Source: Candidatus Micrarchaeota archaeon (GTDB lineage Archaea; Micrarchaeota; Micrarchaeia; Norongarragalinales; Norongarragalinaceae). From it: a DNA stretch of 64,000 bases. The notes beneath the pieces were generated by a model. The model was not told the origin of the DNA. It saw nothing but the letters and a program-made list of their open reading frames with translations, and made no database searches. Positions 788 to 27,326 of this stretch are shown piece after piece. The position numbers and the translations under genes are program-made. The first letter of the stretch is position 1; each line of letters begins with the position of its first letter. Location of the stretch: contig JBDRBT010000006.1 in the NCBI GenBank assembly GCA_043822385.1, positions 23,586 through 87,585 on the forward strand, read 5' to 3'.

Positions 788-1192
788 ATGGGTGCAGCTA
801 AATACATTGCTAAATCGTTTATTAACTCGATAAAAACTAAGAGTCCTGTTTACAAAGCTAGGTTGTACGCCTGGCGGAGACAAGGAACTATTGTTAGAGT
901 AGAAAAACCCTTAAATCCAACTCGTGCTCGAGCTCTTGGGTTTAAGTCCGTTAATGGTTTTTTTATAGCTAGAGTTAAGATGACTAGAGGAAAGCGCGTT
1001 AGGCGTGCTCCTGACTTAGGTAGAAAACCCGGTAAAAACCGAAAGAGAGTTAATCCTGGAAAAGCTTGGCAGTGGTTTGCTGAATTGAAAGCTACTCTGC
1101 GTTTCAAGAACTCTAAAGTGCTCGGTAGTTACTGGGTTGGTGAAGATGCTGTAAGCCAGTACTATGAAGTGGTTTTGAAGGCGGATAACTAG
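788..1192 (+). CDS. rpl15e: 50S ribosomal protein L15e, short form
   Basis: N-terminus MGAAKYI...LYAWRRQG and later SYWVGEDAVSQYYEVVL match the L15e family pattern (MGAYKYI.ELW..; SYWVGQDG..W.EVIL). The ATG at 788 lies inside a longer ORF. The protein is about 134 aa and lacks the usual C-terminal ~60 aa. Confidence 0.8.
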   Translation: MGAAKYIAKSFINSIKTKSPVYKARLYAWRRQGTIVRVEKPLNPTRARALGFKSVNGFFIARVKMTRGKRVRRAPDLGRKPGKNRKRVNPGKAWQWFAELKATLRFKNSKVLGSYWVGEDAVSQYYEVVLKADN

Positions 1193-14596: not shown

Positions 14597-14628
14597 AGTG
14601 ATTTTTTTTGAGACAAACTTTCGAAGCA

Positions 14629-15168
14629 ATGAAGAACGCTTATTTAGCAGTTACTGAATTGTCTAATGCCGAGAAACGTCGTTTGTCTAAACTCGCTCAA
14701 GAATCCGAAGTTTATAGGAAGTTGAGGAAGAATATTGAACGAAAGTTTGGTTATCGTTCTAATTTAAGAGGAGGCAAGATTCCGCTTAATGTTGTTAACG
14801 CTTTTTTAGGTGATAAAACCGCGCGTGCTCTGCAAAAACATAATTTGGAACTTCATTATGATGGCGATCGTCAAGGGGTAAAACGTTTTAGCGTTCAGTA
14901 CTCGAATAAAGAAGTTCCCTGGTTTTTTTTGAACAGTAAGGGTTTAGTTATTCGTGTTGATACTAATTTACCTTCTGTTGGTTTTTACAAAACGCTATTT
15001 GGTAAAGAACCGATTCATCCTATTGACTTGTCTTTTGCTTCGCCTGAATTGTTTAAACATTTTCCAGAAGAAAAGTTAGATGAAAACTTAGTTAAAACTG
15101 GTTATCACGGATTGTTTGACGACCCGAAGTTTATTGCTGCGTTAAGAAACGTTAGCTTGAAGACGTGA
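14629..15168 (+). CDS. hypothetical protein
   Basis: ORF immediately upstream of rpoH. ATG chosen at MKNAYLAV (the listed ORF begins with TTG at 14608). No recognisable motif. Confidence 0.45.
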   Translation: MKNAYLAVTELSNAEKRRLSKLAQESEVYRKLRKNIERKFGYRSNLRGGKIPLNVVNAFLGDKTARALQKHNLELHYDGDRQGVKRFSVQYSNKEVPWFFLNSKGLVIRVDTNLPSVGFYKTLFGKEPIHPIDLSFASPELFKHFPEEKLDENLVKTGYHGLFDDPKFIAALRNVSLKT

Positions 15169-15284: not shown

Positions 15285-15521
15285 TTGGATTCTTTAGCAA
15301 GTCATTTTTTAGTTCCGAAGGCAGTAAAGCTTTCGGAAGACGAAGTTTCAGAGTTACTTTCAAAGCTAAAATGTACTGTTGATAAATTACCTAAAGTAAA
15401 GAGTGATGATGCTTCAGTAAAAGGCTTGCAGGTAGTAGAGGGCGATGTAGTAAAATACGTTCGCAAGAGTCCAATTATTAGTGGGGATTCATTTTATTAT
15501 CGGATAGTTATTTCCGAATAA
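15285..15521 (+). CDS. rpoH: DNA-directed RNA polymerase subunit H (Rpb5 homolog)
   Basis: SHFLVPKAVKLSEDEVSELLSKLK...LPKVKSDDASVK...GDVVKYVRKSPIISGDSFYYRIV matches the RpoH pattern (HELVPKH..L...E...LL..Y.I...QLP.I...DP.A..IGAK.GDVV.I.R.S.TAG....YR.VV). It lies directly upstream of rpoB. The start is apparently TTG. Confidence 0.8.
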   Translation: MDSLASHFLVPKAVKLSEDEVSELLSKLKCTVDKLPKVKSDDASVKGLQVVEGDVVKYVRKSPIISGDSFYYRIVISE

Positions 15522-15558: not shown

Positions 15559-17028
15559 ATGTCTCAGTTCGCTGAAGTTACTAAAGCTTATTTGCGCGAT
15601 AACAGTGTAGTAAAACAACACTTGGAAGGCTACGACAAGTTTGTTAGGGGCGAAATGCAAGCTATTGTTGACGCTCAAGCTACTATTGAACCTCAAATAG
15701 AGGGTTATACGATCAAGCTCGGTAAGATTCGAGCTGAAAAACCAATGATTACTGAAGCCGATGGTTCTAGACGAAAATTACTTCCTTCTGAAGCTCGTTT
15801 CAGAGATTTGTCTTATACTTCCCCGTTGTTTTTGGAAATGACTCAAGTAGTCAACGGAGTTGAGCGAAGAACTGAAGATGTTTTTATTGGTGAATTGCCG
15901 GTAATGTTGAAGTCTTCTCTTTGTTATTTGTATGAATTGAGTTATTCTGAATTAGCGGATGCTGGCGAGGATGGAATGGATTCGGGTGGTTATTTCGTTA
16001 TTAATGGCACTGAAAAAACCTTAATGACTTTAGAAGATTTAGCTCCTAACCGTATTCTTGTTTCTCGAGATAAGGATAAGGAATTAGTTCAAGCAAAAGT
16101 TTTTTCCACTCGCTCTGGTTTCAGGGGAAGATGCACTGTAGATCGCGATAAGATTGGTCGTTTGAGTGTTACTTTACCTTCTTACAGCAAGAATTTAGAG
16201 TTAATTCTGGTTTTAAGAGCACTTGGTTTAGTTGATAGAGAAAGAATATTGAAAGTTTTCTCTGAGAATCAAGAGATTGTTAATGACTTACTGCTTAATT
16301 TAGAGTTAGAGGAATCAAAAACTAAGCGCGATGCTTTGGAAATAATAGGCAAGAGAGCTGCGCCTGGACAACCGGTTGACTACCAAATTAAGAGAGCTGA
16401 ATTGCTTTTAGATCGTTACTTGCTTCCTCATATTGGTATTGACGAGAGTGTTCGTTTAGCTAAGGCTTATTATTTGTGTAGAATGGCTGAACGGTGTATA
16501 CTTGTTTCTTACGGTAAGAGAGCTGTTGAAGACAAGGATCATTATTCTAACAAGCGTTTGAAGATTTCCGGCAAGTTAATGGAGGAAGTTTTTCGTTACG
16601 CTTTCCAGTTCCTTGTGAAAGACGTGGCTTACCAAATGGAGAGGGCTAACGTGCGTGGTCGTAGAATGAGTATGTTTTCTATTGTTAGGCCTGATGCTTT
16701 GAGTGATAGAATAAAGTATTCAATGGCTACTGGAAATTGGGTTGGCGGGCACACAGGTGTTTCACAGCCTTTAGATCGTTATAATTTTATTTCTGCAGCT
16801 AGTTTCTTGAAGCGTGTTACTTCGCCTCTAGCTAAAAAGCATCCTCATTATAAAGCAAGGGATTTGCATGGTACTCATTGGGGTAGGCTTGATCCTAACG
16901 AGACGCCTGAAGGCCCGAATTGTGGTTTAGTTAAGAACTTGTCTTTGTATTGTGAAGTTACTACCGGCATTCATGAAAAGGGTGTCGAATCTATTTTGAA
17001 AAGAATGGGAGTTTCATTGAAGTTATAA
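15559..17028 (+). CDS. rpoB2: DNA-directed RNA polymerase subunit B'' (N-terminal half of split RpoB)
   Basis: Rpb2 N-terminal protrusion and lobe motifs are present, and the C-terminus reads GLVKNLSL. A 489-aa split B subunit is typical of many archaea. Confidence 0.95.
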   Translation: MSQFAEVTKAYLRDNSVVKQHLEGYDKFVRGEMQAIVDAQATIEPQIEGYTIKLGKIRAEKPMITEADGSRRKLLPSEARFRDLSYTSPLFLEMTQVVNGVERRTEDVFIGELPVMLKSSLCYLYELSYSELADAGEDGMDSGGYFVINGTEKTLMTLEDLAPNRILVSRDKDKELVQAKVFSTRSGFRGRCTVDRDKIGRLSVTLPSYSKNLELILVLRALGLVDRERILKVFSENQEIVNDLLLNLELEESKTKRDALEIIGKRAAPGQPVDYQIKRAELLLDRYLLPHIGIDESVRLAKAYYLCRMAERCILVSYGKRAVEDKDHYSNKRLKISGKLMEEVFRYAFQFLVKDVAYQMERANVRGRRMSMFSIVRPDALSDRIKYSMATGNWVGGHTGVSQPLDRYNFISAASFLKRVTSPLAKKHPHYKARDLHGTHWGRLDPNETPEGPNCGLVKNLSLYCEVTTGIHEKGVESILKRMGVSLKL

Positions 17029-17041
17029 GGAGTGTTGTTTA

Positions 17042-18853
17042 ATGAAGTCTAGCAGTATTTTTTTGAACGGGAGATTCCTCGGTTTTCACGATAATGGTGA
17101 AAAACTAGTTGATGACTTGCGTGAAATGAGGCGTAAGGGAGAACTTGATTCTGAGTTTAATATTTGTTTTTACTCTAAAACTAATGAAGTTTTTATTAAT
17201 ACTGACGAGGGACGCGCTCGCAGGCCTTTAATCGTTGTAAAGAACGGCAAGCCATTGCTTTCAAGTGATTTAGTTGATAGATTAAAGAAAAAAGAATTAT
17301 CCTGGAACGATTTAGTTGTCAGGGGCTTAATTGAGTACTTGGATGCAGAGGAAGAAGAAAACACGTTAATTGCTTTGAATTTAAACGAGTTAACTGAAAA
17401 ACACACTCACTTGGAAATTGATCCTTCAGTTATTTTGGGTTATGCTTCTTCATTAATTCCTTTTCCTGAATACAACATGGCTCCGAGAGTTTTAATGGCT
17501 GCTCAGCACACTAAACAGAGTCTTGGCTTGTTTGCAAGCAATTACAATTATCGTACTGACACTAGGTCTCACTTGCTTTTTTATCCACAAAGGCCGTTAG
17601 TTCAAACTAGAACTTACGACGCATTAAAGTTGTTTAATCGTTCTTCAGGACAAAATTACGTGGTTGCTGTATTGAGTTATTACGGTTACAACATGAATGA
17701 CGCGGTCGTAATGAACAAGAGTTCCATAGAACGCACTTTAGGTAGAACTATGTTCATGCGTACGTACAATACTGAAGAAAGGCGTTATCCTGGAGGACAA
17801 AAAGACAAGTTCTGTAAGCCGGAAGAATTTGTTCAAGGTTATTTAGGTGAGGAAGTTTACGCTAGTTTAGATGAAGATGGATTGATTTCTCCTGAAACGG
17901 TTGTTGAGCCTAACGCGGTTTTAGTTGGAAAAACGTCTCCTCCACGGTTCTTGAAGGAAGTTACTGCTCTTGAAGTTGATGTTGAAAAAAGGCGCGAGAG
18001 TTCTCTTTCAGTTCGAGGTAACGAAAGCGGTATAGTTGATTCTGTTATTTTATCTGTAACTCCTTCTGGCAATAAGTTCGTTAAAATTAAAGTGCGTAAC
18101 TTGAATATTCCTGAAGTTGGAGACAAGTTTGCTTCGCGTTTCGGGCAAAAGGGAGTTGTTTCATTAATGGTTCCTCAGGAAGACATGCCGTTTACTAAAG
18201 ACGGTGTGGTGCCTGATTTGATTATTAATCCTCATGCTATTCCAGGTCGTATGACTGCTGGTCACTTGCTTGAAATGCTTGGTGGAAAAGCTGCTTGCGT
18301 TAGTGGAAAGTTGAGGGATGGAACTGCTTTTAGTGGCGAAAAACAAGCTGATTTTGAAAAGGTTTTGAAGGAAGCTGGTTTTGACGAGACTGGGCAAGAA
18401 TTATTGTACGATGGAAAAACGGGTCGTTTAATGAACTCGAAAATTTTTGTTGGAGTTATTTACTACCAACGATTGCATCACTTGGTTGGTTTGAAGATGC
18501 ATGCTCGTTCGCGTGGTCCAGTTCAAATGCTTACTCACCAGCCTACTGAAGGACGCGCTCGCGAGGGTGGTTTGAGGCTTGGTGAAATGGAGCGTGACTG
18601 TTTTATTGGTTACGGCGCGGCTTTGTTGTTGAAAGAGCGTATGATTGATTCAAGTGACAAGACTACTGAATTAGTTTGCAATACTTGTGGTTCTCTTGCA
18701 ATTTTTGATCGTGTTAAGAACAAGCGTTACTGTCCATTGTGTGATAGTTCTGACGTTAAAGAAATTTTTGTTTCTTATGCCTTCAAGCTGTTGGTTGATG
18801 AAATGAAGTCTATTGGTATATTCCCAAAATTAAACTTGAAGGATAATGCGTGA
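17042..18853 (+). CDS. rpoB1: DNA-directed RNA polymerase subunit B' (C-terminal half of split RpoB)
   Basis: GDKFASRFGQKGV, NPHAIPGRMTAGHLLE, GEMERDC and the C-terminal Zn ribbon C..C....C..C are conserved Rpb2 C-terminal motifs. Confidence 0.95.
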   Translation: MKSSSIFLNGRFLGFHDNGEKLVDDLREMRRKGELDSEFNICFYSKTNEVFINTDEGRARRPLIVVKNGKPLLSSDLVDRLKKKELSWNDLVVRGLIEYLDAEEEENTLIALNLNELTEKHTHLEIDPSVILGYASSLIPFPEYNMAPRVLMAAQHTKQSLGLFASNYNYRTDTRSHLLFYPQRPLVQTRTYDALKLFNRSSGQNYVVAVLSYYGYNMNDAVVMNKSSIERTLGRTMFMRTYNTEERRYPGGQKDKFCKPEEFVQGYLGEEVYASLDEDGLISPETVVEPNAVLVGKTSPPRFLKEVTALEVDVEKRRESSLSVRGNESGIVDSVILSVTPSGNKFVKIKVRNLNIPEVGDKFASRFGQKGVVSLMVPQEDMPFTKDGVVPDLIINPHAIPGRMTAGHLLEMLGGKAACVSGKLRDGTAFSGEKQADFEKVLKEAGFDETGQELLYDGKTGRLMNSKIFVGVIYYQRLHHLVGLKMHARSRGPVQMLTHQPTEGRAREGGLRLGEMERDCFIGYGAALLLKERMIDSSDKTTELVCNTCGSLAIFDRVKNKRYCPLCDSSDVKEIFVSYAFKLLVDEMKSIGIFPKLNLKDNA

Positions 18854-18868
18854 GGAGTGGATTTTGTT

Positions 18869-21800
18869 ATGACTATTATTGGCTCAATCAAGTTTTCGTT
18901 GTTTTCACCTAATGACATACGAAAAATGAGTACTACGCGTATTACTGTTCCAGATACTTACGATGAAGATGGTTACCCGATTGTTGGTGGTTTAGCGGAC
19001 CAGAGGCTTGGCGTGATTGATCCGGGTTTGAAATGCAAGTCTTGTGGTTCTAGAATGAAGGATTGCCCAGGACACTTTGGGCACATTGAGTTAGTTCGTC
19101 CAGTAGTTCACGTTGGTTTTGCTAAAACAGTTTACCAGTTATTGAAAGCTACTTGCAGGAAGTGCGGTAGGTTAATGGTTTTAGCTGACCTTGAAAAAAC
19201 TAAACAAAGCAATGAGTGTCCTCATTGTGGAGAAAAACAAAAGAAAGTAAAATTTGTTAAGCCAACTGGTTTTTTTGAAGACGACCGAAAAGTATTGCCT
19301 AATGAACTTCGCGAAAGGTTAGAGCGTATTCCTCAGGAAGACTTAGACGTATTGAAGGTTAAAATAAGGCCTGAGTGGGTGGTTTTAACGGTCTTGATTG
19401 TTCCTCCTGTTACTGTACGCCCTTCAATTACTCTTGAGACGGGAGAACGAAGTGAAGATGATTTAACTCACAAGCTAGTGGATATTTTGCGTATAAACCA
19501 ACGGCTTGAGGAAAACGTTGAAGCAGGGGCTCCTCAATTGATTATTGAAGACTTGTGGGAGTTATTGCAGTACCACGTTTCTACTTATTTTGATAATGAG
19601 ACTGCTGGTATTCCGCCCGCTAGACACAGGAGTGGTAGGCAGTTGAAGACTTTGTTCCAGAGGCTTAAAGGTAAGGAAGGCAGGTTTAGGTACAACTTGT
19701 CTGGAAAGAGAGTTAACTTTTCTGCGAGAACCGTTATTTCTCCTGACCCGACTCTTGGAATAAATGAACTTGGTGTTCCGGATGAAATTGCTTCTGAATT
19801 AACCGTGCCTATTAGCGTTACTGAATGGAATTTAGAAAACGTCAAGATTTTGCTTAAAGAAAAAATGGATAAAATTAGTTACGTTGTTAGGCCTGATGGA
19901 CGAAGAAAGAAACTGAGTGCATCTAATTTAGATGAAGTTTTAGGTGAATTAGCTCCCGGTTATTTTGTTGAACGACAGTTAATTGATGGAGATTTTGTTT
20001 TGTTTAACCGACAGCCTTCATTACACAGAGTTTCAATGATGTGCCACCGTGTTAGAGTTTTGCCTGGAAAAACCTTTAGGTTTAATGTTGCTGTTTGCAA
20101 TCCATATAACGCGGACTACGATGGGGATGAAATGAACATGCACGTTCCTCAAAACGAGGAAGCTCAAAGCGAAGCAGCTTTGTTAATGAGTGTTAAAGAA
20201 CAAATATTGTCTCCACGAAAAGGGTTTGCAATTATCGCGCCTAGTTTAGATCACATTACTGGCTTGTACTTATTGACTCAAGATGAAGTTTCTTGGTCTA
20301 GGGAAGAGGCTTGCACTTTACTTAATGAAGCAGGAATAACTAACGAAAACGTTAACAAAACTATTTCCGGTAAAGACTTGTTTTCAATGATTTTGCCTCC
20401 TGAATTAAATTTCGAGTGCATTAACAAAAGCAAGGAAAAAGTTGTCATAAAAAAAGGAAAACTTGTTAGTGGTCACATTGATGGGAAAGTAAGTACTATT
20501 CTAGTTGAAGAAATTTTCAAGAAACTTGGTTCTGAAGCGGCTTCTGATTATTTGGATCGAACAACCAAATTGTCTGTTGCAGTCACTACTTTCTACGGTT
20601 TTTCTTTGAGCATGGATGATTATAAAATAACTCCGAAAGCTAAAGAAGAAATAACTCAGTTGTATGAAGAAGGAAGAAAGAAAGTACGCGAGTTAATCAA
20701 GCTTTATCGTACTGGAAAATTAGAGAGAAAACCCGGTAAAACACTAAAGGAAACTCTAGAAGAGCAAGTAATGAGTGTAGTTGAATTAATTCGTTTTCAC
20801 TCTTGGTCTATAGTTAAAGACAACATCAAGCTAAATGCGGTTGTTATTGGTGGTAAAGAATTGAAGCAAAACTCTGCTTTGTTAATGGCTAGTTCAGGCG
20901 CGAGAGGTAAGCCAATAAACGTAGTGCAAATGACTTCCTTAGTTGGCCAGCAAGCAGTTAGAGGAAAGAGAATGACTGCAGGGTTTAGGAATAGAATTCT
21001 ACCTCACTTTTTGCGTGGTGACTTATCTGATTCTTCTCGTGGTTTTGTTAAGAATAATTACGTTGACGGCTTAACTGCCTTTGAGTATTTCTTCCACGCT
21101 GCTGGAGGAAGGGACTCGGTAGTAGACAAGGGCGTAAACCCTGCTAAAACAGGTTACATGCAGAGGCGTTTAATTAATGCTTTCCAAGACTTTTTCGTTG
21201 ATTCCGATTATAGCGTTAGGGATGCGGAAGGTAATTTGATTCAATTCCTTTACGGTGACGATGGAAATGACCCATGTACTAATGAGGCTATTGCTCCTGG
21301 AGAGCCAGTTGGAGTAGTTGCCGCACAATCTATTGGTGAACCTGGCACGCAAATGACTTTAAGAACGTTCCACTATGCTGGAGTAGCTTCTTTAGCACAA
21401 TTAGGGTTCACTCGATTGGTTGAATTAGTTGATGCTAGACGCACGCCTAAAAAACCAGTTATGGAAATTCACTTGCAAAAGAAATTCCAGAAAGATTACG
21501 ATGCAGTAAAGAAAATTGCTTCAAGCATTGAGCAAGTTACGCTTAGAGATATTGCTGAAATAAAGGAAGACTTCATCAAGAAAGTAGTAACCATTACTTT
21601 CAACAAGCAATTAATGCGTGAAAAAAATATTAAAGAAAAAGAAATAATTGAAAAGATAAAAGAATTAGCTGAATTTAGCGTCAAGGATGATGTTCTCGTG
21701 ATAAAACCAAAGAACGAGTCTTTGAAGAATATTCGCTTGCTTACCACTAAGATGGGTGACTTGCATTTGCAAGGCATTTCTGGAATAAGCCGAGCTATTA

Positions 21801-22267
21801 TTGTAGAATCAAAGAAGGACCAGGGAATTGAATTAACTATTGCTACGGAAGGATCTAACTTGAAGGAAGTATTCAAGATTCCTGAAGTTGATAGTTACTT
21901 TACTACTACTAATGACGTTAAAGAAATTGCTGAAGTCTTAGGTATTGAAGCAGGAAGAAACTCTATTATTCAGGAAGTAATGAAGGTTTTAGATGCTCAA
22001 GATCTTGATGTTGACTTGAGGCACATAATGCTTATTGCGGATGCAATGGCGTTTAAGGGAGCTATTCTTTCAGTAGGCCGGCACGGTTTAGCTGGGAAGA
22101 AGGCTTCAGTAATCGCCAGGGCTGCTTTCGAGGAAACTGCCAAGCACTTGTTGAATGCTTGCGTTCACGGGGAAGTAGATAACTTGAGTGGCGTAGCTGA
22201 AAATATTATTGTCGGACAAACTATTCCTTGCGGAACCGGTAAAGTAAACCTCGAGTACAAACCTTGA
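18869..22267 (+). CDS. rpoA: DNA-directed RNA polymerase subunit A, with A' and A'' apparently fused in one ORF
   Basis: The N-terminal clamp Zn motifs, the catalytic NADYDGDEMN, the bridge helix (AKTGYMQRRLINAFQD) and the trigger loop (AAQSIGEPGTQMTLRTFHYAGVA) all lie in one continuous 1132-aa frame. Only about 25 aa separate the bridge helix from the trigger loop. The C-terminus reads GQTIPCGTG. ATG at 18869 is preferred over the upstream GTG. Confidence 0.9.
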   Translation: MTIIGSIKFSLFSPNDIRKMSTTRITVPDTYDEDGYPIVGGLADQRLGVIDPGLKCKSCGSRMKDCPGHFGHIELVRPVVHVGFAKTVYQLLKATCRKCGRLMVLADLEKTKQSNECPHCGEKQKKVKFVKPTGFFEDDRKVLPNELRERLERIPQEDLDVLKVKIRPEWVVLTVLIVPPVTVRPSITLETGERSEDDLTHKLVDILRINQRLEENVEAGAPQLIIEDLWELLQYHVSTYFDNETAGIPPARHRSGRQLKTLFQRLKGKEGRFRYNLSGKRVNFSARTVISPDPTLGINELGVPDEIASELTVPISVTEWNLENVKILLKEKMDKISYVVRPDGRRKKLSASNLDEVLGELAPGYFVERQLIDGDFVLFNRQPSLHRVSMMCHRVRVLPGKTFRFNVAVCNPYNADYDGDEMNMHVPQNEEAQSEAALLMSVKEQILSPRKGFAIIAPSLDHITGLYLLTQDEVSWSREEACTLLNEAGITNENVNKTISGKDLFSMILPPELNFECINKSKEKVVIKKGKLVSGHIDGKVSTILVEEIFKKLGSEAASDYLDRTTKLSVAVTTFYGFSLSMDDYKITPKAKEEITQLYEEGRKKVRELIKLYRTGKLERKPGKTLKETLEEQVMSVVELIRFHSWSIVKDNIKLNAVVIGGKELKQNSALLMASSGARGKPINVVQMTSLVGQQAVRGKRMTAGFRNRILPHFLRGDLSDSSRGFVKNNYVDGLTAFEYFFHAAGGRDSVVDKGVNPAKTGYMQRRLINAFQDFFVDSDYSVRDAEGNLIQFLYGDDGNDPCTNEAIAPGEPVGVVAAQSIGEPGTQMTLRTFHYAGVASLAQLGFTRLVELVDARRTPKKPVMEIHLQKKFQKDYDAVKKIASSIEQVTLRDIAEIKEDFIKKVVTITFNKQLMREKNIKEKEIIEKIKELAEFSVKDDVLVIKPKNESLKNIRLLTTKMGDLHLQGISGISRAIIVESKKDQGIELTIATEGSNLKEVFKIPEVDSYFTTTNDVKEIAEVLGIEAGRNSIIQEVMKVLDAQDLDVDLRHIMLIADAMAFKGAILSVGRHGLAGKKASVIARAAFEETAKHLLNACVHGEVDNLSGVAENIIVGQTIPCGTGKVNLEYKP

Positions 22268-22407: not shown

Positions 22408-25400
22408 TTAAAAGTATTTTGCTAGCGAGAATTGCTGTGCGTTGTCTTGCTTGAAAATGTCGTTTATTTCTCGTTCGAGTAATGCTAGTCTTTGTTTCAA
22501 GTAATCCGGCAAGTTGTATTTTTCAGTCATTTCCTTGCTTAATTCTAAGTACTTCATTATTCCGCCTTTGTTTATTGTTAGTAATAGTTTTCCGTTGCAC
22601 TTGCGGCACTTTCCGCTTAAAGGCACGCGCCTGTATTTAGCGTTGCAGTCTACGCATCTTAGTTTTTGTTTTCCGAATGAACGCAGGTTTCCATACAAGT
22701 CGGGTAAAAAGTGTGATAAAATTATTTTTTCGCTTGCTTTGCTTTCATCTACCGCCCTGATTTTCCTCATTAATTCTAGTTCAGAGTAAACTTTTTCACT
22801 CATGCTTTTTAGTTCAACGTATTTTGTTACTATCGGGCCTAAAATGCTTGCTTCGTGAGTATACCCGATTCCTTCGTATTGTTCTTCTTTACCTAAGAAT
22901 TCGCTTATCGTGCTTATTTTAGCTTCGCTTGGTGGGAAACTGTTTTCTGAATTCCGGTAAAAATCAAGCGGGTAATCAAAAGAACGATCCATTGCGTGAA
23001 CTTCATCATCTACTTCCCGTGGGTCTAGAATAGTAGTTAATACTAGGGCCGCATCCATTTTGCCTCCGCGTGTTTCAGGTAGGAACGAGTAAGAAAAGTT
23101 TAGGAACAAGTCCATGGCTAGCATTACTGCTAATTCGTCTCCGTCTGCGTTTCTCCTGCAAGCACAATGCAAGTAAGGGTGAGCTAATAGCCCTTGAACG
23201 TGCGTGTAACCAATTATTCTGCAAGTTATTCCTGCGCTAGTGTGCGGCGCTATTGCCACGAGTACTTTTCCAATCAAGTCTTTTGGTTTGCTGCAGTTGT
23301 AGTAAGAAGAAAGGTTGTACAAGTAAACTAGTTCGTCATCAATGAATTGCGTTACTCGATAAAAATATCCTAAAGCGTGTTCTGAAATAACAACGTCTTG
23401 AGGGAATATTTCTATTATTTGATCCGTGTTTTCAATTGGTTTTCCGTGAATGTCTTTTTCGTAGCCTAGTTTTTTTATTTCTTCAATGCTCGCATTTATT
23501 TCCCCTGGTTTGAAGTGAGTTATTGGTATTTCAGTTGAATCGTGTCTTATAGTGCCGTCCCTGAACACGCTTAATTCGTACTTGGCGCGCAGTAATCCTT
23601 TCTCTAGTGCTTCAGGTGTCTTTGCTGCTGAAATCAAGCCTATTACTGCTTTTACTTTTTCCGGCTTACAGTTTACTTTGCTAGCGGCTTTTTCAACTAA
23701 GTCCTTCAAGTTTACTCTTTGAATCGCGCTCTTTTTTTTCTTTATTTGGCATGAACAAGTCTTTTTCCCGCATTTTACGCAAGTTTCTATACTTATTGTG
23801 TCCTGGCCGCATGAACTGCATTTATTGTTGTATTGAACGAGTTTGCAGGAACTGCACTCTCGAGTTTCCACTTCGACTTCTATTATTCCCGCATTAGCTG
23901 CTTTCATTAAGTCGCGGGTTTTGCCTCCTGCTTGCCCGATTGGGAACAAGGAGTTTACGGGGGGCTGCATTTTTCTTTCCTTGCTTTTTTCAGGCCTACC
24001 CATACTAGTTCCGACGTATATTCCTACTTTTTTCTTGATTTTGAATGGTGCTGTTTCATTAATTATTTGCATTACTGTTTTTTCTTCAGAAAAAGCTTTA
24101 TTGAATTTTTCTAGAGTCAACCCCTTGTTTTTGATTAATCCTAGCGAGGTTAGTAGTGCGAGCGCGTAGTTTTTTTCTATAATGATTTCATCGTTTTTTA
24201 CTGAGTGTGGGAAACACATTATTTCCAAGAGTCTTTTTTCACTCGAGTTTTTAAGTGAGTAATTCTTGAATTCAAACCAGTCGTAGTCAAGTTTTCCTTT
24301 TTTAATTAAGTATTCAGCTAGTGTTTTCAATTCTTTTGCGGTTAAGTCATGCCAGTGGAAAGTGTATTTTGGGGCTAGTGGCGCGTTGAATGACGCTGCT
24401 TCTTCAAAAGAGATTTCGTTTATTTCACTAATGCTTTTATGCACGTTTATTTCGTTTAATTCTTTTTGGTACCATTCTTCGCACCAGGCTGAAGCTATTA
24501 TTGGGTGGTTTGCCTTGTTGAAGTCGCCGAAGCAAGTAAGCAAGTCGCCTAGGAAAATTATTTCTTTTATTTTTTCTTTTTCTTCATTTGCTTCTTCAAC
24601 TGAATTGATTTTTTTTACTGTACCATCTTCCAACAACACTGTTGGGCCTTCGATTGTTTCGCAAGGCGTGACTATGCAGCCTTTTCCAGGGCGTTCTGTT
24701 TTAACTTGAGTTCCAAAAACAGGAAAGTTATCCAAAACCGTCATTGTTGCGGGGTGTATTCCTTTTGCTAGTATTCCGCAAAAACGAGTTCTACCGTACC
24801 GCAACCTGAAGCCTCCTTGAGCCATTGGGAAACTAAAGATTGGTCTCCCGGCTACTATGTCTTGCATGTATTTGGGTACTGGTTTTATCTCGATTTTTTT
24901 CTCGTTTTGTTTCGTTACTTTAACTAGTTTTTCTAGCCAACTCCAGTCTAAACCTGCTTTCTTAGCTATTTTCATTACTTTAGGTGCTTTCAAGCATATT
25001 CCTTCGCTTATTACTAAGCAAACGCCTGAACGCACTTTGTTTGTTTCTATTGAAGCGAGGTTTTTGTACGTGCTTACTTCATAATCTTCAGTTGGCTCGC
25101 CGTTAACGCAAATAGGACAGTTTGTTACTACGTGTTTTACTTCTTCTTCTGTTGGAACGTATTGTCCTGCCCTGGTTTTTAAGGCGTACAAATTTATTTC
25201 TTCAACAAACCTGTTTTGCTCGTCTTCAAGCGGCCTGTAAGCGCCTATACTCATTTTTTTCCTGCAGTAATCCGCAACTAAGAGTGTGAATGCTTGTCCG
25301 GTTCCTCCCGCTCCACGAATTGGTCCAGTAAAGTAAACTGCTATGTAGTCCGAGCCGTCTGCGTTCTTTTTTATTTTTACTCTTGATACGCCCTCGATTG

Positions 25401-25755
25401 GTGCTGAAACTACTCCCTCAGTGAATAATGCTAGTGCGGAGCGTACTGCTTGTTCTATTAATTCTTCTTTGCTTCCTTGAATGAATTTTTCGTCAAGTAT
25501 TTCTTTAGCTATTTCGAAACAAACTTTATCCCGGTTATCTAGTTCTTCAGTTAATTCTCTTATTCTTGTCGCTATTCCCCGCGGGCCTACTAGTCCTTCT
25601 ACTCTTGCAGCCACGTCTTTTGCTGGCGCAACTTCCACTCCTTTAGATGGGTCTAAGCCTTTGCTTCGAGCTTGGCTTGCTAAATCAATTTGTTTGGTTA
25701 TTTCTGTTTCTAGTTCTTGAAAATAGTTTTTGATTTTAAGGCTGGCTTCAATCAT
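22408..25755 (-). CDS. polD2: DNA polymerase II (PolD) large subunit DP2
   Basis: 1115 aa. The N-terminal region (RVEGLVGPRGIATRIREL), central Cys clusters and the C-terminal Zn-binding motif CVDCNAKYRRVPLSGKCRKCNGKL are typical of archaeal DP2. No intein-sized insertion is present. Confidence 0.95.
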   Translation of the reverse strand: MIEASLKIKNYFQELETEITKQIDLASQARSKGLDPSKGVEVAPAKDVAARVEGLVGPRGIATRIRELTEELDNRDKVCFEIAKEILDEKFIQGSKEELIEQAVRSALALFTEGVVSAPIEGVSRVKIKKNADGSDYIAVYFTGPIRGAGGTGQAFTLLVADYCRKKMSIGAYRPLEDEQNRFVEEINLYALKTRAGQYVPTEEEVKHVVTNCPICVNGEPTEDYEVSTYKNLASIETNKVRSGVCLVISEGICLKAPKVMKIAKKAGLDWSWLEKLVKVTKQNEKKIEIKPVPKYMQDIVAGRPIFSFPMAQGGFRLRYGRTRFCGILAKGIHPATMTVLDNFPVFGTQVKTERPGKGCIVTPCETIEGPTVLLEDGTVKKINSVEEANEEKEKIKEIIFLGDLLTCFGDFNKANHPIIASAWCEEWYQKELNEINVHKSISEINEISFEEAASFNAPLAPKYTFHWHDLTAKELKTLAEYLIKKGKLDYDWFEFKNYSLKNSSEKRLLEIMCFPHSVKNDEIIIEKNYALALLTSLGLIKNKGLTLEKFNKAFSEEKTVMQIINETAPFKIKKKVGIYVGTSMGRPEKSKERKMQPPVNSLFPIGQAGGKTRDLMKAANAGIIEVEVETRECSSCKLVQYNNKCSSCGQDTISIETCVKCGKKTCSCQIKKKKSAIQRVNLKDLVEKAASKVNCKPEKVKAVIGLISAAKTPEALEKGLLRAKYELSVFRDGTIRHDSTEIPITHFKPGEINASIEEIKKLGYEKDIHGKPIENTDQIIEIFPQDVVISEHALGYFYRVTQFIDDELVYLYNLSSYYNCSKPKDLIGKVLVAIAPHTSAGITCRIIGYTHVQGLLAHPYLHCACRRNADGDELAVMLAMDLFLNFSYSFLPETRGGKMDAALVLTTILDPREVDDEVHAMDRSFDYPLDFYRNSENSFPPSEAKISTISEFLGKEEQYEGIGYTHEASILGPIVTKYVELKSMSEKVYSELELMRKIRAVDESKASEKIILSHFLPDLYGNLRSFGKQKLRCVDCNAKYRRVPLSGKCRKCNGKLLLTINKGGIMKYLELSKEMTEKYNLPDYLKQRLALLEREINDIFKQDNAQQFSLAKYF

Positions 25756-27224
25756 TGTTCGTCACCAACAAAATTCAAGACTTTTAGTGACCCCGTCTTT
25801 AAGTTGTAAACAGGTAGTTGTGCGGGAGTAGGAACGTGTCCTTGTTTTACTTGAAAATCGGTTCTTGACTGCCAGGTTCCTGAATTAACTATGAAGGTTC
25901 CTTTGTAGTCTGCGTAACCGTTTTTGTGCACGTGCCCGAAGTGAAGAATATCTGGTATTTGTTTTATTACCATTTCATCTTCAGGTAAGGGAATTAAGGG
26001 TTTTTCTCCGTAAACTGGAGACAAGTGTCTCCTCTTTAAGTATTCAATGCCGACTAGTTCTGGTTGTTCATACCCGTTTTTTAGGCTGGGTAGCGCTTTA
26101 ATTACGTAATCTATTGAAGTGCCGTGATAAATCAGTATTTTCAAGTCGTGAATTAAAACCATTGCGGGGTTGGATACGAATAAGACGTTTTCTTTTCCTT
26201 CTAGTTGTCGTACGAATTCGTTTGATATTCTAGGTGTTGGTTCTGCGGTTCTTGCAGAATCATGGTTTCCGGTTGAAATAATTATTTGAATGTGGTCGGG
26301 TATTTGTTTGAAGTAATCGCAAAACATTTCGTACTGGCCGTAAATGTCTTTAGTTACTAACTCGCTTTCTTGGTTTGGGTAAATGCCTACTCCGTCAACT
26401 ATGTCTCCTGCTAAAATTAAGTACTTTATTTTGCTTGCTTCCTCGCTGTCTTCGGTTTCTCCTCTTAAGAACTTTATTAGTTTCTGGAATTCCCTTTGCA
26501 TGAAGTTTTTGCTTCCAAAGTGAGTGTCTGAAATGAATGCTATTGAAACGTCTTCATTAATTAGTTTTTTTTGTCTTATGGGAACGTCCGGCCAAACAAT
26601 ATTTTCTACAATAAACAAGCCTTTACTCATGAAGCCGTCTAAGGCGAGTACGTCATCTTGAAGCACTTGGTTTGCTAGCTCGAGTGTTTTCGCGTCGTTT
26701 TTTGATACTAAGCAAGGTATTAATTCATCTAAGTCTTCTAGCTCAATTAGTTTGTGCTTGTTTTTTGTTTCCCTGCAGTCATTTACCATGCCTATTATGC
26801 GCATTTTGTTTCTGTCAATGCTTTTTTTTGCTTGGCTTAGAGTTACGATAGCGTGTTCGCTTCTTCTTTGTTTTAGTATCAAGCTTAATTGAGCAAAACG
26901 GTTTTGAAAGTATTTAGTAAAGTCTTTTACTTCCCCTATTATTCTGCCTGTTTTTTTTTCTTCATAAACCAGGGAAGTTTTTACTAGTGCTGCAGACGGC
27001 GCGTAATCTGTTTTTTTTTCGCTTGTTGTTTGCCCTGCTTTTTCTGACACGTTTAACTCGTTTAAAACTTCGTCAATAATAGCGTGAGTAATTATGAAGC
27101 CTCCCTTCAAGTGAGTTTCGCATGCTTCTAAGAGTTTTAACGGGTTTTCGTAATTCTTCAAGTGGTTTAATGCTGCTGGTTCTATTAGCAAGCCTCTTTT
27201 TTTGGCTTCAAGCAGTACATCCAT
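25752..27224 (-). CDS. polD1: DNA polymerase II (PolD) small subunit DP1 (calcineurin-like phosphoesterase, 3'-5' exonuclease)
   Basis: Metallophosphatase motifs IAFISDTHFGS, LILAGDIVDG, GNHDS and FGHVHKNGY. It overlaps the DP2 start by 4 nt. The start is ambiguous: ATG at 27284 adds a hydrophobic 20-aa extension, and I prefer 27224 (MDVLLEAKKRG). Confidence 0.9.
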   Translation of the reverse strand: MDVLLEAKKRGLLIEPAALNHLKNYENPLKLLEACETHLKGGFIITHAIIDEVLNELNVSEKAGQTTSEKKTDYAPSAALVKTSLVYEEKKTGRIIGEVKDFTKYFQNRFAQLSLILKQRRSEHAIVTLSQAKKSIDRNKMRIIGMVNDCRETKNKHKLIELEDLDELIPCLVSKNDAKTLELANQVLQDDVLALDGFMSKGLFIVENIVWPDVPIRQKKLINEDVSIAFISDTHFGSKNFMQREFQKLIKFLRGETEDSEEASKIKYLILAGDIVDGVGIYPNQESELVTKDIYGQYEMFCDYFKQIPDHIQIIISTGNHDSARTAEPTPRISNEFVRQLEGKENVLFVSNPAMVLIHDLKILIYHGTSIDYVIKALPSLKNGYEQPELVGIEYLKRRHLSPVYGEKPLIPLPEDEMVIKQIPDILHFGHVHKNGYADYKGTFIVNSGTWQSRTDFQVKQGHVPTPAQLPVYNLKTGSLKVLNFVGDEQ

Positions 27225-27326
27225 TAAAAAACCCACCCAACTATAGAAAAAGACTGAGGAAGTAATATACGTAAAACAAAGCATTTAATTTTATTGCTTT
27301 CAATATAACGTTAAAAGGGAGATTGA

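Follow-up and report, generated by a model that had tools for sequence, protein, structure and literature searches.

In this study, we examined rpoA, the gene for the largest RNA polymerase (RNAP) subunit, in a 64,000-nucleotide (nt) stretch of the genome of a Candidatus Micrarchaeota archaeon (contig JBDRBT010000006.1 of assembly GCA_043822385.1), hereafter called the window. On its + strand lies an RNAP operon in the order rpoH-rpoB''-rpoB'-rpoA. It opens with rpoH (Rpo5; 15285..15521), an open reading frame (ORF) of 78 amino acids (aa) that matches Pfam RNA_pol_Rpb5_C (E=6.5e-18, profile positions 4-73 of 73). Rpo2 is split, as an initial annotation of the window had proposed, into rpoB'' (15559..17028; 489 aa, the N-terminal half with Pfam Rpb2 domains 1, 2 and 3) and rpoB' (17042..18853; 603 aa, the C-terminal half with domains 4, 5, 6 and 7). 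Directly downstream of rpoB', in the position of the housekeeping RpoA, lies rpoA (Rpo1; 18869..22267). The same annotation had described RpoA as one fused A'/A'' ORF, and this is borne out: no stop separates the bridge helix from the trigger loop, and Pfam Rpb1 domains 1-5 are found in a single frame and in canonical order, each above its gathering cut-off (E=1e-24 to 1e-83). The mechanical ORF (18857..22267) is uninterrupted and counts 1136 aa from the GTG at 18857. The real product is most likely the 1132 aa starting at the ATG at 18869, because this codon has a GGAG about 11 nt upstream and agrees with the N-termini of homologues and with the deposited NCBI protein, MFH1779698.1 (1132 aa, 'Candidatus Micrarchaeota archaeon'), to which RpoA of the window is identical.

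Read from the sequence, the catalytic metal-binding motif NADYDGDEMN lies at 20108..20137 of the + strand (residues 418-427 in ORF numbering), and in an alignment of 55 sequences N414, A415, D416, D418, G419, D420, E421, M422 and N423 are invariant. One could suspect a decaying or non-functional paralogue, as DPANN genomes are reduced and fast-evolving and RpoA of the window is, in addition, short of 26 aa in the clamp head and of a Cys-rich loop of 14 aa. Such decay is nevertheless highly improbable in view of the canonical operon position after rpoB', the intact state of the Zn-binding Cys clusters, catalytic motif, bridge helix and trigger loop, and the full-length orthologues (60-73% identity) that are undisrupted across dozens of species. 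The rpoA gene encodes a complete, conserved Rpo1 within a housekeeping operon.

The departure from canonical archaeal RNAP is found at the junction between the A' and A'' halves, all elements of which are on the + strand. The bridge-helix segment (FFHAAGGRD...GYMQRRLINAFQDFFV; 21089..21199, residues 745-781) aligns to the bridge-helix regions of Rpo1N and Rpb1. It is followed by a post-bridge-helix hairpin (21200..21274, residues 782-806), which ends in the conserved ...QFLYGDDGNDP and is the last block alignable to A'. Next come a six-residue linker, CTNEAI (21275..21292, residues 807-812), and the trigger-loop segment (APGEPVG...; 21293..21436, residues 813-860), which comprises the first trigger helix onward and aligns to Rpo1C from residue 57-61 and to the NCBIfam profile TIGR02389 from position 37. 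Across the junction, the protein reads GNDPCTNEAIAPGEPVG. The initial annotation had located bridge helix and trigger loop rightly, at 21130-21420, but had counted ~12 aa between the conserved blocks, where the actual gap is 6 aa.

The linker stands in place of a module of about 80 aa formed by the tail of A' and the N-terminus of A''. When aligned to RpoA of the window, Sulfolobus Rpo1N breaks off at residue 858 of 880, and Rpo1C sets in no earlier than residue 61 (residue 57-58 in Thermococcus and Pyrococcus), with phmmer E-values of 1e-243 to 1e-269 for Rpo1N and about 1e-75 to 1e-84 for Rpo1C. In the 55-sequence alignment, a gap of 76-82 aa at the linker, as compared with long fused RpoA, is the largest indel of the protein. 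A foot region located elsewhere in the ORF, which the initial annotation had named as the finding that would speak against it, was not seen: insertions relative to the long forms amount to only 11 aa and 5 aa, there is no compensation elsewhere in the ORF, and a search for sequence similar to the module, by alignment within the ORF and by tblastn in the 64-kb window, returned none. Judged from these alignments, the missing material is the A' C-terminal tail and the A'' N-terminal stretch, about 76-86 aa, at the position of the Rpb1 foot; the predicted absence of these two ends thus stands, while their predicted size of 90-140 aa was too large. One peripheral module has been cleanly excised from RpoA of the window.

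As a ruler for the junction, we used a long fused homologue from Bathyarchaeia. Its junction amounts to Thermococcus Rpo1N through residue 905 of 907 and then Rpo1C from residue 9-11; the matching stretch is 878..~1032-1050 in Rpb1, where the foot sits, and 928..1011 in RPC1. RPC1 has about 83 residues at this site, and across the aligned RNAPs (bacterial beta', archaeal and eukaryotic) the length of the module is similar. At the same insertion point, the Pol II Rpb1 foot (Rpb1 ~878 to ~1050) is expanded to ~170 aa; RpoA of the window has six residues only, and a folded Rpb1-type foot module is therefore absent from it. The earlier view of a naturally fused, foot-minimised largest subunit is accordingly supported by alignment to both Rpb1 and archaeal A'/A''. 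The Pol II foot has reportedly been implicated, in the 2013 work of Garrido-Godino et al., in assembly with Rpb6 and Rpb4/7.

Structure prediction is in line with this picture. An AlphaFold2 model of RpoA, built from the 55-sequence alignment, reached a mean predicted local distance difference test score (pLDDT) of 74.7 and a predicted template modelling score (pTM) of 0.69. Its bridge-helix segment is helical (H737-772 in P0001 numbering), the trigger-loop tip is disordered, as expected, and the model superposes on the single-chain Rpb1 and RPC1 with TMq of 0.72-0.76. Since pLDDT is confident at the junction (10-residue blocks over 791-820 average 81-92, with 85-92 in the hairpin region) and the model superposes on Rpb1 and RPC1, the six-residue linker is predicted to close the gap without strain. 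This fits a module that, like the Rpb1 foot, is an insertion with adjacent ends. It also bears on whether the module might be supplied in trans by a separate small protein in a three-piece arrangement. RNAP large subunits are split at various places across lineages, and our search reached only 64 kb of the genome, both of which leave room for such a protein. We nonetheless consider it unlikely, given the confident local geometry where the linker closes the gap, the chance-level matches (E >= 0.06) obtained by tblastn of eight junction modules against the window, and the split loci of Micrarchaeum-type genomes described below, in which A'' immediately follows A' and there is no ORF between.

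The initial annotation had called for a comparison with rpoA of related genomes, and here the same fused short form was found widely. We measured bridge-to-trigger spacing between two motifs, GYMQRRL in the bridge helix and AQSIGEP in the trigger loop; it is 57 aa in the fused protein of the window. Fused genes with comparably short spacing occur in ~80 related 90%-identity clusters (Micrarchaeota, "Norongarragalinales"; 55-58 aa), in 27+ Micrarchaeota/Norongarragalinales GTDB species genomes (53-58 aa), in Micrarchaeales- and Altiarchaeota-labelled proteins (64-73 aa), in Altiarchaeales GTDB genomes (64-71 aa), in Woese/Pace/Nanoarchaeota (60-61 aa; 111 among 119 further proteins retrieved) and in one "Nanohaloarchaeota"-labelled metagenome-assembled genome (MAG; ~68-70 aa). 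Fused genes with long spacing belong to Bathyarchaeia, Baldr- and Helarchaeota and one Micrarchaeota-labelled protein (126-139 aa, the last, P0089, having 126 aa), and to Bathyarchaeia and Nitrososphaeria GTDB genomes (133-134 aa). Split genes show 130-139 aa in Asgard, Iainarchaeum and an uncultured single-amplified genome, 219-273 aa in Thermoplasmata and 65-83 aa in seven Micrarchaeum-type genomes. Because Iainarchaeum (L070) and "Nanobdellati" (L056) loci retain canonical split genes with long tails, loss of the module is not DPANN-wide.

This distribution also settles whether the short junction could reflect an assembly collapse, a frameshift or a chimeric contig hiding two genes or a longer junction. 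The sequence does come from a single MAG contig. The fused short architecture, however, recurs in more than 100 independent 90%-identity protein clusters, with NCBI, JGI, ENA and Logan assemblies in agreement, as well as in the 27+ GTDB species genomes, which include contigs of 0.7 and 1.3 Mb. Further, the linker differs among relatives (STGKQI, SSGKPI, VGGRPI, VPTQKPV) while its flanks are conserved. Because so many independent assemblies show the same architecture, an assembly collapse is effectively excluded, and the fused, module-less RpoA is a lineage trait rather than a peculiarity of one genome.

Fusion and module loss are separable, since the split genes of Micrarchaeum-type genomes have equally short ends. 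In these seven genomes (L028-L031, L050, L054 and L058), rpoA' and rpoA'' are two genes, both with minimal ends: A' stops a few residues past GxDxxDP, and A'' starts 6-20 residues before xxGEAVG. Four of the seven have both ORFs in the same frame, with one or two stops and a few codons before the ATG; in L028, for example, the frames are in phase with only "*TM" between them. In the remaining three, the A' and A'' ORFs overlap in different frames, as in L058, where A' ends in ...RYGGDMKDPMRSKKV* and A'' starts with MAKKLIDSGEAVGIIAAQSLGEPGTQ. With a split-short pair in such near-contact, loss of a stop or restart is enough to give one ORF. Excision and fusion are thus two separate events, and excision is independent of the fused or split state.

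When the junction was left out and a neighbour-joining (NJ) tree was computed from the flanks, the fused forms with 53-58 aa spacing, the split-short forms, Altiarchaeales, Woese/Pace and the long forms fell into five separate clades. The tree is based on distances in one protein, has no support values and misplaces four intein-containing or divergent loci. In this tree, the clade of the window stands apart from the fused forms of Bathyarchaeia, Nitrososphaeria and Asgard and together with other DPANN, which suggests that its RpoA fusion may be independent of that of A-type RpoA.

We also considered whether the short junction is primitive, DPANN having kept an ancestral minimal subunit into which the module was later inserted in other archaea, bacteria and eukaryotes. 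Some rootings set DPANN deep in the archaeal tree, and the site is evidently an insertion hot-spot, with ~172 aa between aligned blocks in Rpb1 (878..~1050) and the long spacing of Thermoplasmata noted above. Actinobacterial beta', however, is collinear through the module at nearly the length of the archaeal long form, and the full module is retained within DPANN in Iainarchaeum L070 and Nanobdellati L056 and in the Micrarchaeota-labelled P0089. Same-length independent insertions in all other lineages would, moreover, be less parsimonious than loss, and we regard a primitive short junction as very unlikely.

Comparison with known systems helps to put the window protein into context. It shares domain order, catalytic motif, bridge helix and trigger loop with the canonical split Rpo1N/Rpo1C of Sulfolobus (2WAQ/2PMZ), Thermococcus (4QIW) and Pyrococcus (8CRO), but is one polypeptide, lacks Rpo1N ~859-880 and Rpo1C 1-60 (Sulfolobus numbering), and is without 26 aa of the clamp head and the Cys-rich loop. 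The initial statement that archaeal RpoA is normally split was too strong, since A-type genes in fused form are on record for Thaumarchaeota, Korarchaeota, Bathyarchaeia, one Heimdallarchaeote and Pacearchaeota (PMC5484517; PMC5875740). A-type unsplit RpoA, found in Thaumarchaeota, Korarchaeota, Bathyarchaeia and some Asgard (PMC5484517; PMC5875740), is a single ORF like that of the window; it has, however, 1270-1290 aa and a full junction, with A' and A'' end to end and a spacing of 133-139 aa as opposed to 57 aa. The fusion in Pacearchaeota (PMC5484517) likewise concerns a DPANN lineage: by our measurements, RpoA of Woese/Pace/Nanoarchaeota also lacks the module (60-61 aa), yet it belongs to a different phylum, is only ~46% identical and has a different linker sequence. 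The split rpoA'/rpoA'' of Micrarchaeum-type genomes come from the same phylum and show the same module loss (65-83 aa), but are still two genes.

Previous reports have touched on parts of this picture. The main text of Da Cunha et al. 2017 (PMC5484517) mentions "a secondary fusion in Pacearchaeota", a statement about fusion and not about module loss, and Spang et al. 2018 (PMC5875740) noted split and fusion events to be more frequent than assumed. A 2026 paper took the fused Woesearchaeota protein PIN77526.1 as "Rpo1" and did not use the words "fused", "fusion" or "split". In the literature searched, we found no description of DPANN or Micrarchaeota RpoA without the junction module, or of split-short forms. 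Fused archaeal RpoA is therefore already known, and the additional loss of the junction module is the new part.

Taken together, we consider it probable that this is the working largest RNAP subunit of a Micrarchaeota (DPANN) archaeon, made as one polypeptide from a standard rpoH-rpoB''-rpoB'-rpoA operon, from which the module at the foot position was excised separately from the fusion. The excision is seen relative to every solved cellular RNAP sequence aligned. Mechanistically, removal of an insertion with adjacent ends would leave the catalytic core (the Zn clamp motifs, NADxDGDE, bridge helix and trigger loop) intact, and a short variable linker would then join the post-bridge-helix hairpin directly to the first trigger helix. 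The canonical module may belong to the interface at which A' and A'' meet non-covalently and to the platform that faces Rpo5 and Rpo6; lineages with a truncated Rpo6 might tolerate its loss. Once this interface is gone, covalent fusion could be favoured as its replacement, and such a replacement is a plausible selective reason for the fusion.

The proposed link to Rpo6 draws on published work. Rpo6 forms without the C-terminal region make no contact with Rpo1's Rpo6-interacting domain (RID), 'allowing ... RID to vary' (PMC13257274). Iainarchaeota retain the basic Rpo6, short forms being found in most of the remaining DPANN phyla (PMC13257274), and the long junction that we found in Iainarchaeum matches the former. 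Korkhin 2009 holds no discussion of the subunit contacts of the archaeal module, and rpoK/Rpo6, sought in the 64-kb window by two motif scans for co-variation with module loss, was not found.

Several points weigh against this explanation. It is we who infer that the module is the RID of PMC13257274. Euryarchaeota with a short Rpo6 nonetheless retain the module, and truncated Rpo6 therefore at most permits its loss and does not cause it. As the split short-junction genes demonstrate, deletion need not be followed by fusion, and the NJ tree lacks the strength to put the events in order or to tell how many losses were independent. Finally, the genome was seen through a 64-kb window, outside which a second rpoA copy or a trans-encoded module could lie.

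A broader version of this explanation holds the module to be dispensable and its loss, coupled to Rpo6 truncation, to have occurred repeatedly among lineages with reduced genomes (Micrarchaeota, Altiarchaeota, Woese/Pace/Nanoarchaeota and a eukaryote-type protein resembling RPC1); it is possible but rather doubtful. If it were true, these proteins would represent a minimal core of the cellular RNAP that arose in nature, and DPANN phylogeny would gain a marker of the rare-genomic-change type. The RPC1-like protein, P0226 (1125 aa, from an ENA contig of 3.5 kb), is of the eukaryotic Pol III type, with RPC1 as its best PDB matches (E=1e-265) and a spacing of only 57 aa; it appears to have lost the same module convergently, outside Archaea. 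The Thermoplasmata loci (within L052-L079) show a trend opposite to that of DPANN, the junction site being ~100-140 aa longer there than in other archaea.

The loss of the module has practical consequences for annotation. RpoA of the window passes both NCBIfam models for subunit A', TIGR02390 (1103.4 bits, cut-off 1042.55) and NF006336 (1126.8 bits, cut-off 819), with the subunit A' match stopping at profile position 855 of 867. It fails the model for subunit A'', TIGR02389 (404.0 bits, cut-off 420.65), because the match begins only at profile position 37 of 367. The A'' half is clearly homologous to A'' but truncated at its N-terminus. At NCBI, the fused short-form proteins are named "subunit A'" only, a naming that the failed A'' cut-off would explain. 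Pipelines for marker-based completeness or phylogenomics that rely on TIGR02389 could consequently take genomes of this kind to be without rpoA''.

Functionally, these proteins amount to a natural deletion experiment on a module that the aligned cellular RNAPs all keep or expand, and they suggest that the foot-position module may not be needed for catalysis. Minimal archaeal RNAP constructs may be modelled on them, and they offer a way to probe the role of the A'/A'' interface and of the Rpo5/Rpo6 platform. The split or fused state has been used in arguments for rooting the Archaea and for placing Asgard (PMC5484517; PMC5875740). One phylum, as we find, holds fused-short, split-short and long forms, which supports the view of split/fused characters as labile; junction length may inform phylogeny better than fusion state. 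The feature is present in many public, already deposited MAGs and is not unique to the window, which limits its surprise. It is of value chiefly as an RNAP that naturally lacks the foot and as a phylogenetic character that both cautions and informs.

Beyond the junction, RpoA of the window and its relatives differ at further sites. The 26 aa missing from the clamp head (after P0001 residue 110) may correspond to the longer clamp-head helix-turn-helix (HTH; residues 107-140) of Sulfolobus Rpo1N, which together with Rpo5 forms the Rpo13 docking cavity (PMC2675907). The 14-aa Cys-rich loop (CxxCxxxxCxH), kept by some relatives, is missing after P0001 residue 524. Some Micrarchaeota homologues of RpoA reach 1608-1679 aa and contain an intein (Pfam PF14528, PF14890); these are P0045, P0050, P0052, P0060, P0071, P0077 and P0100, and the loci L037, L039 and L042. 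In P0077, the first aligned stretch stops at query residue 832, which puts the intein within the conserved trigger-loop motif.

In the surroundings of rpoA, the start codon of rpoH is TTG, and its 78-aa size is under usual ORF length filters. Directly upstream of it on the + strand lies a 186-aa ORF (14608-15168) without a Pfam match. On the other side, convergent with rpoA, the PolD genes occupy 22408-27284 of the - strand and encode the DP2 large subunit (1115 aa) and the DP1 small subunit (510 aa), with frames that overlap by 4 nt.

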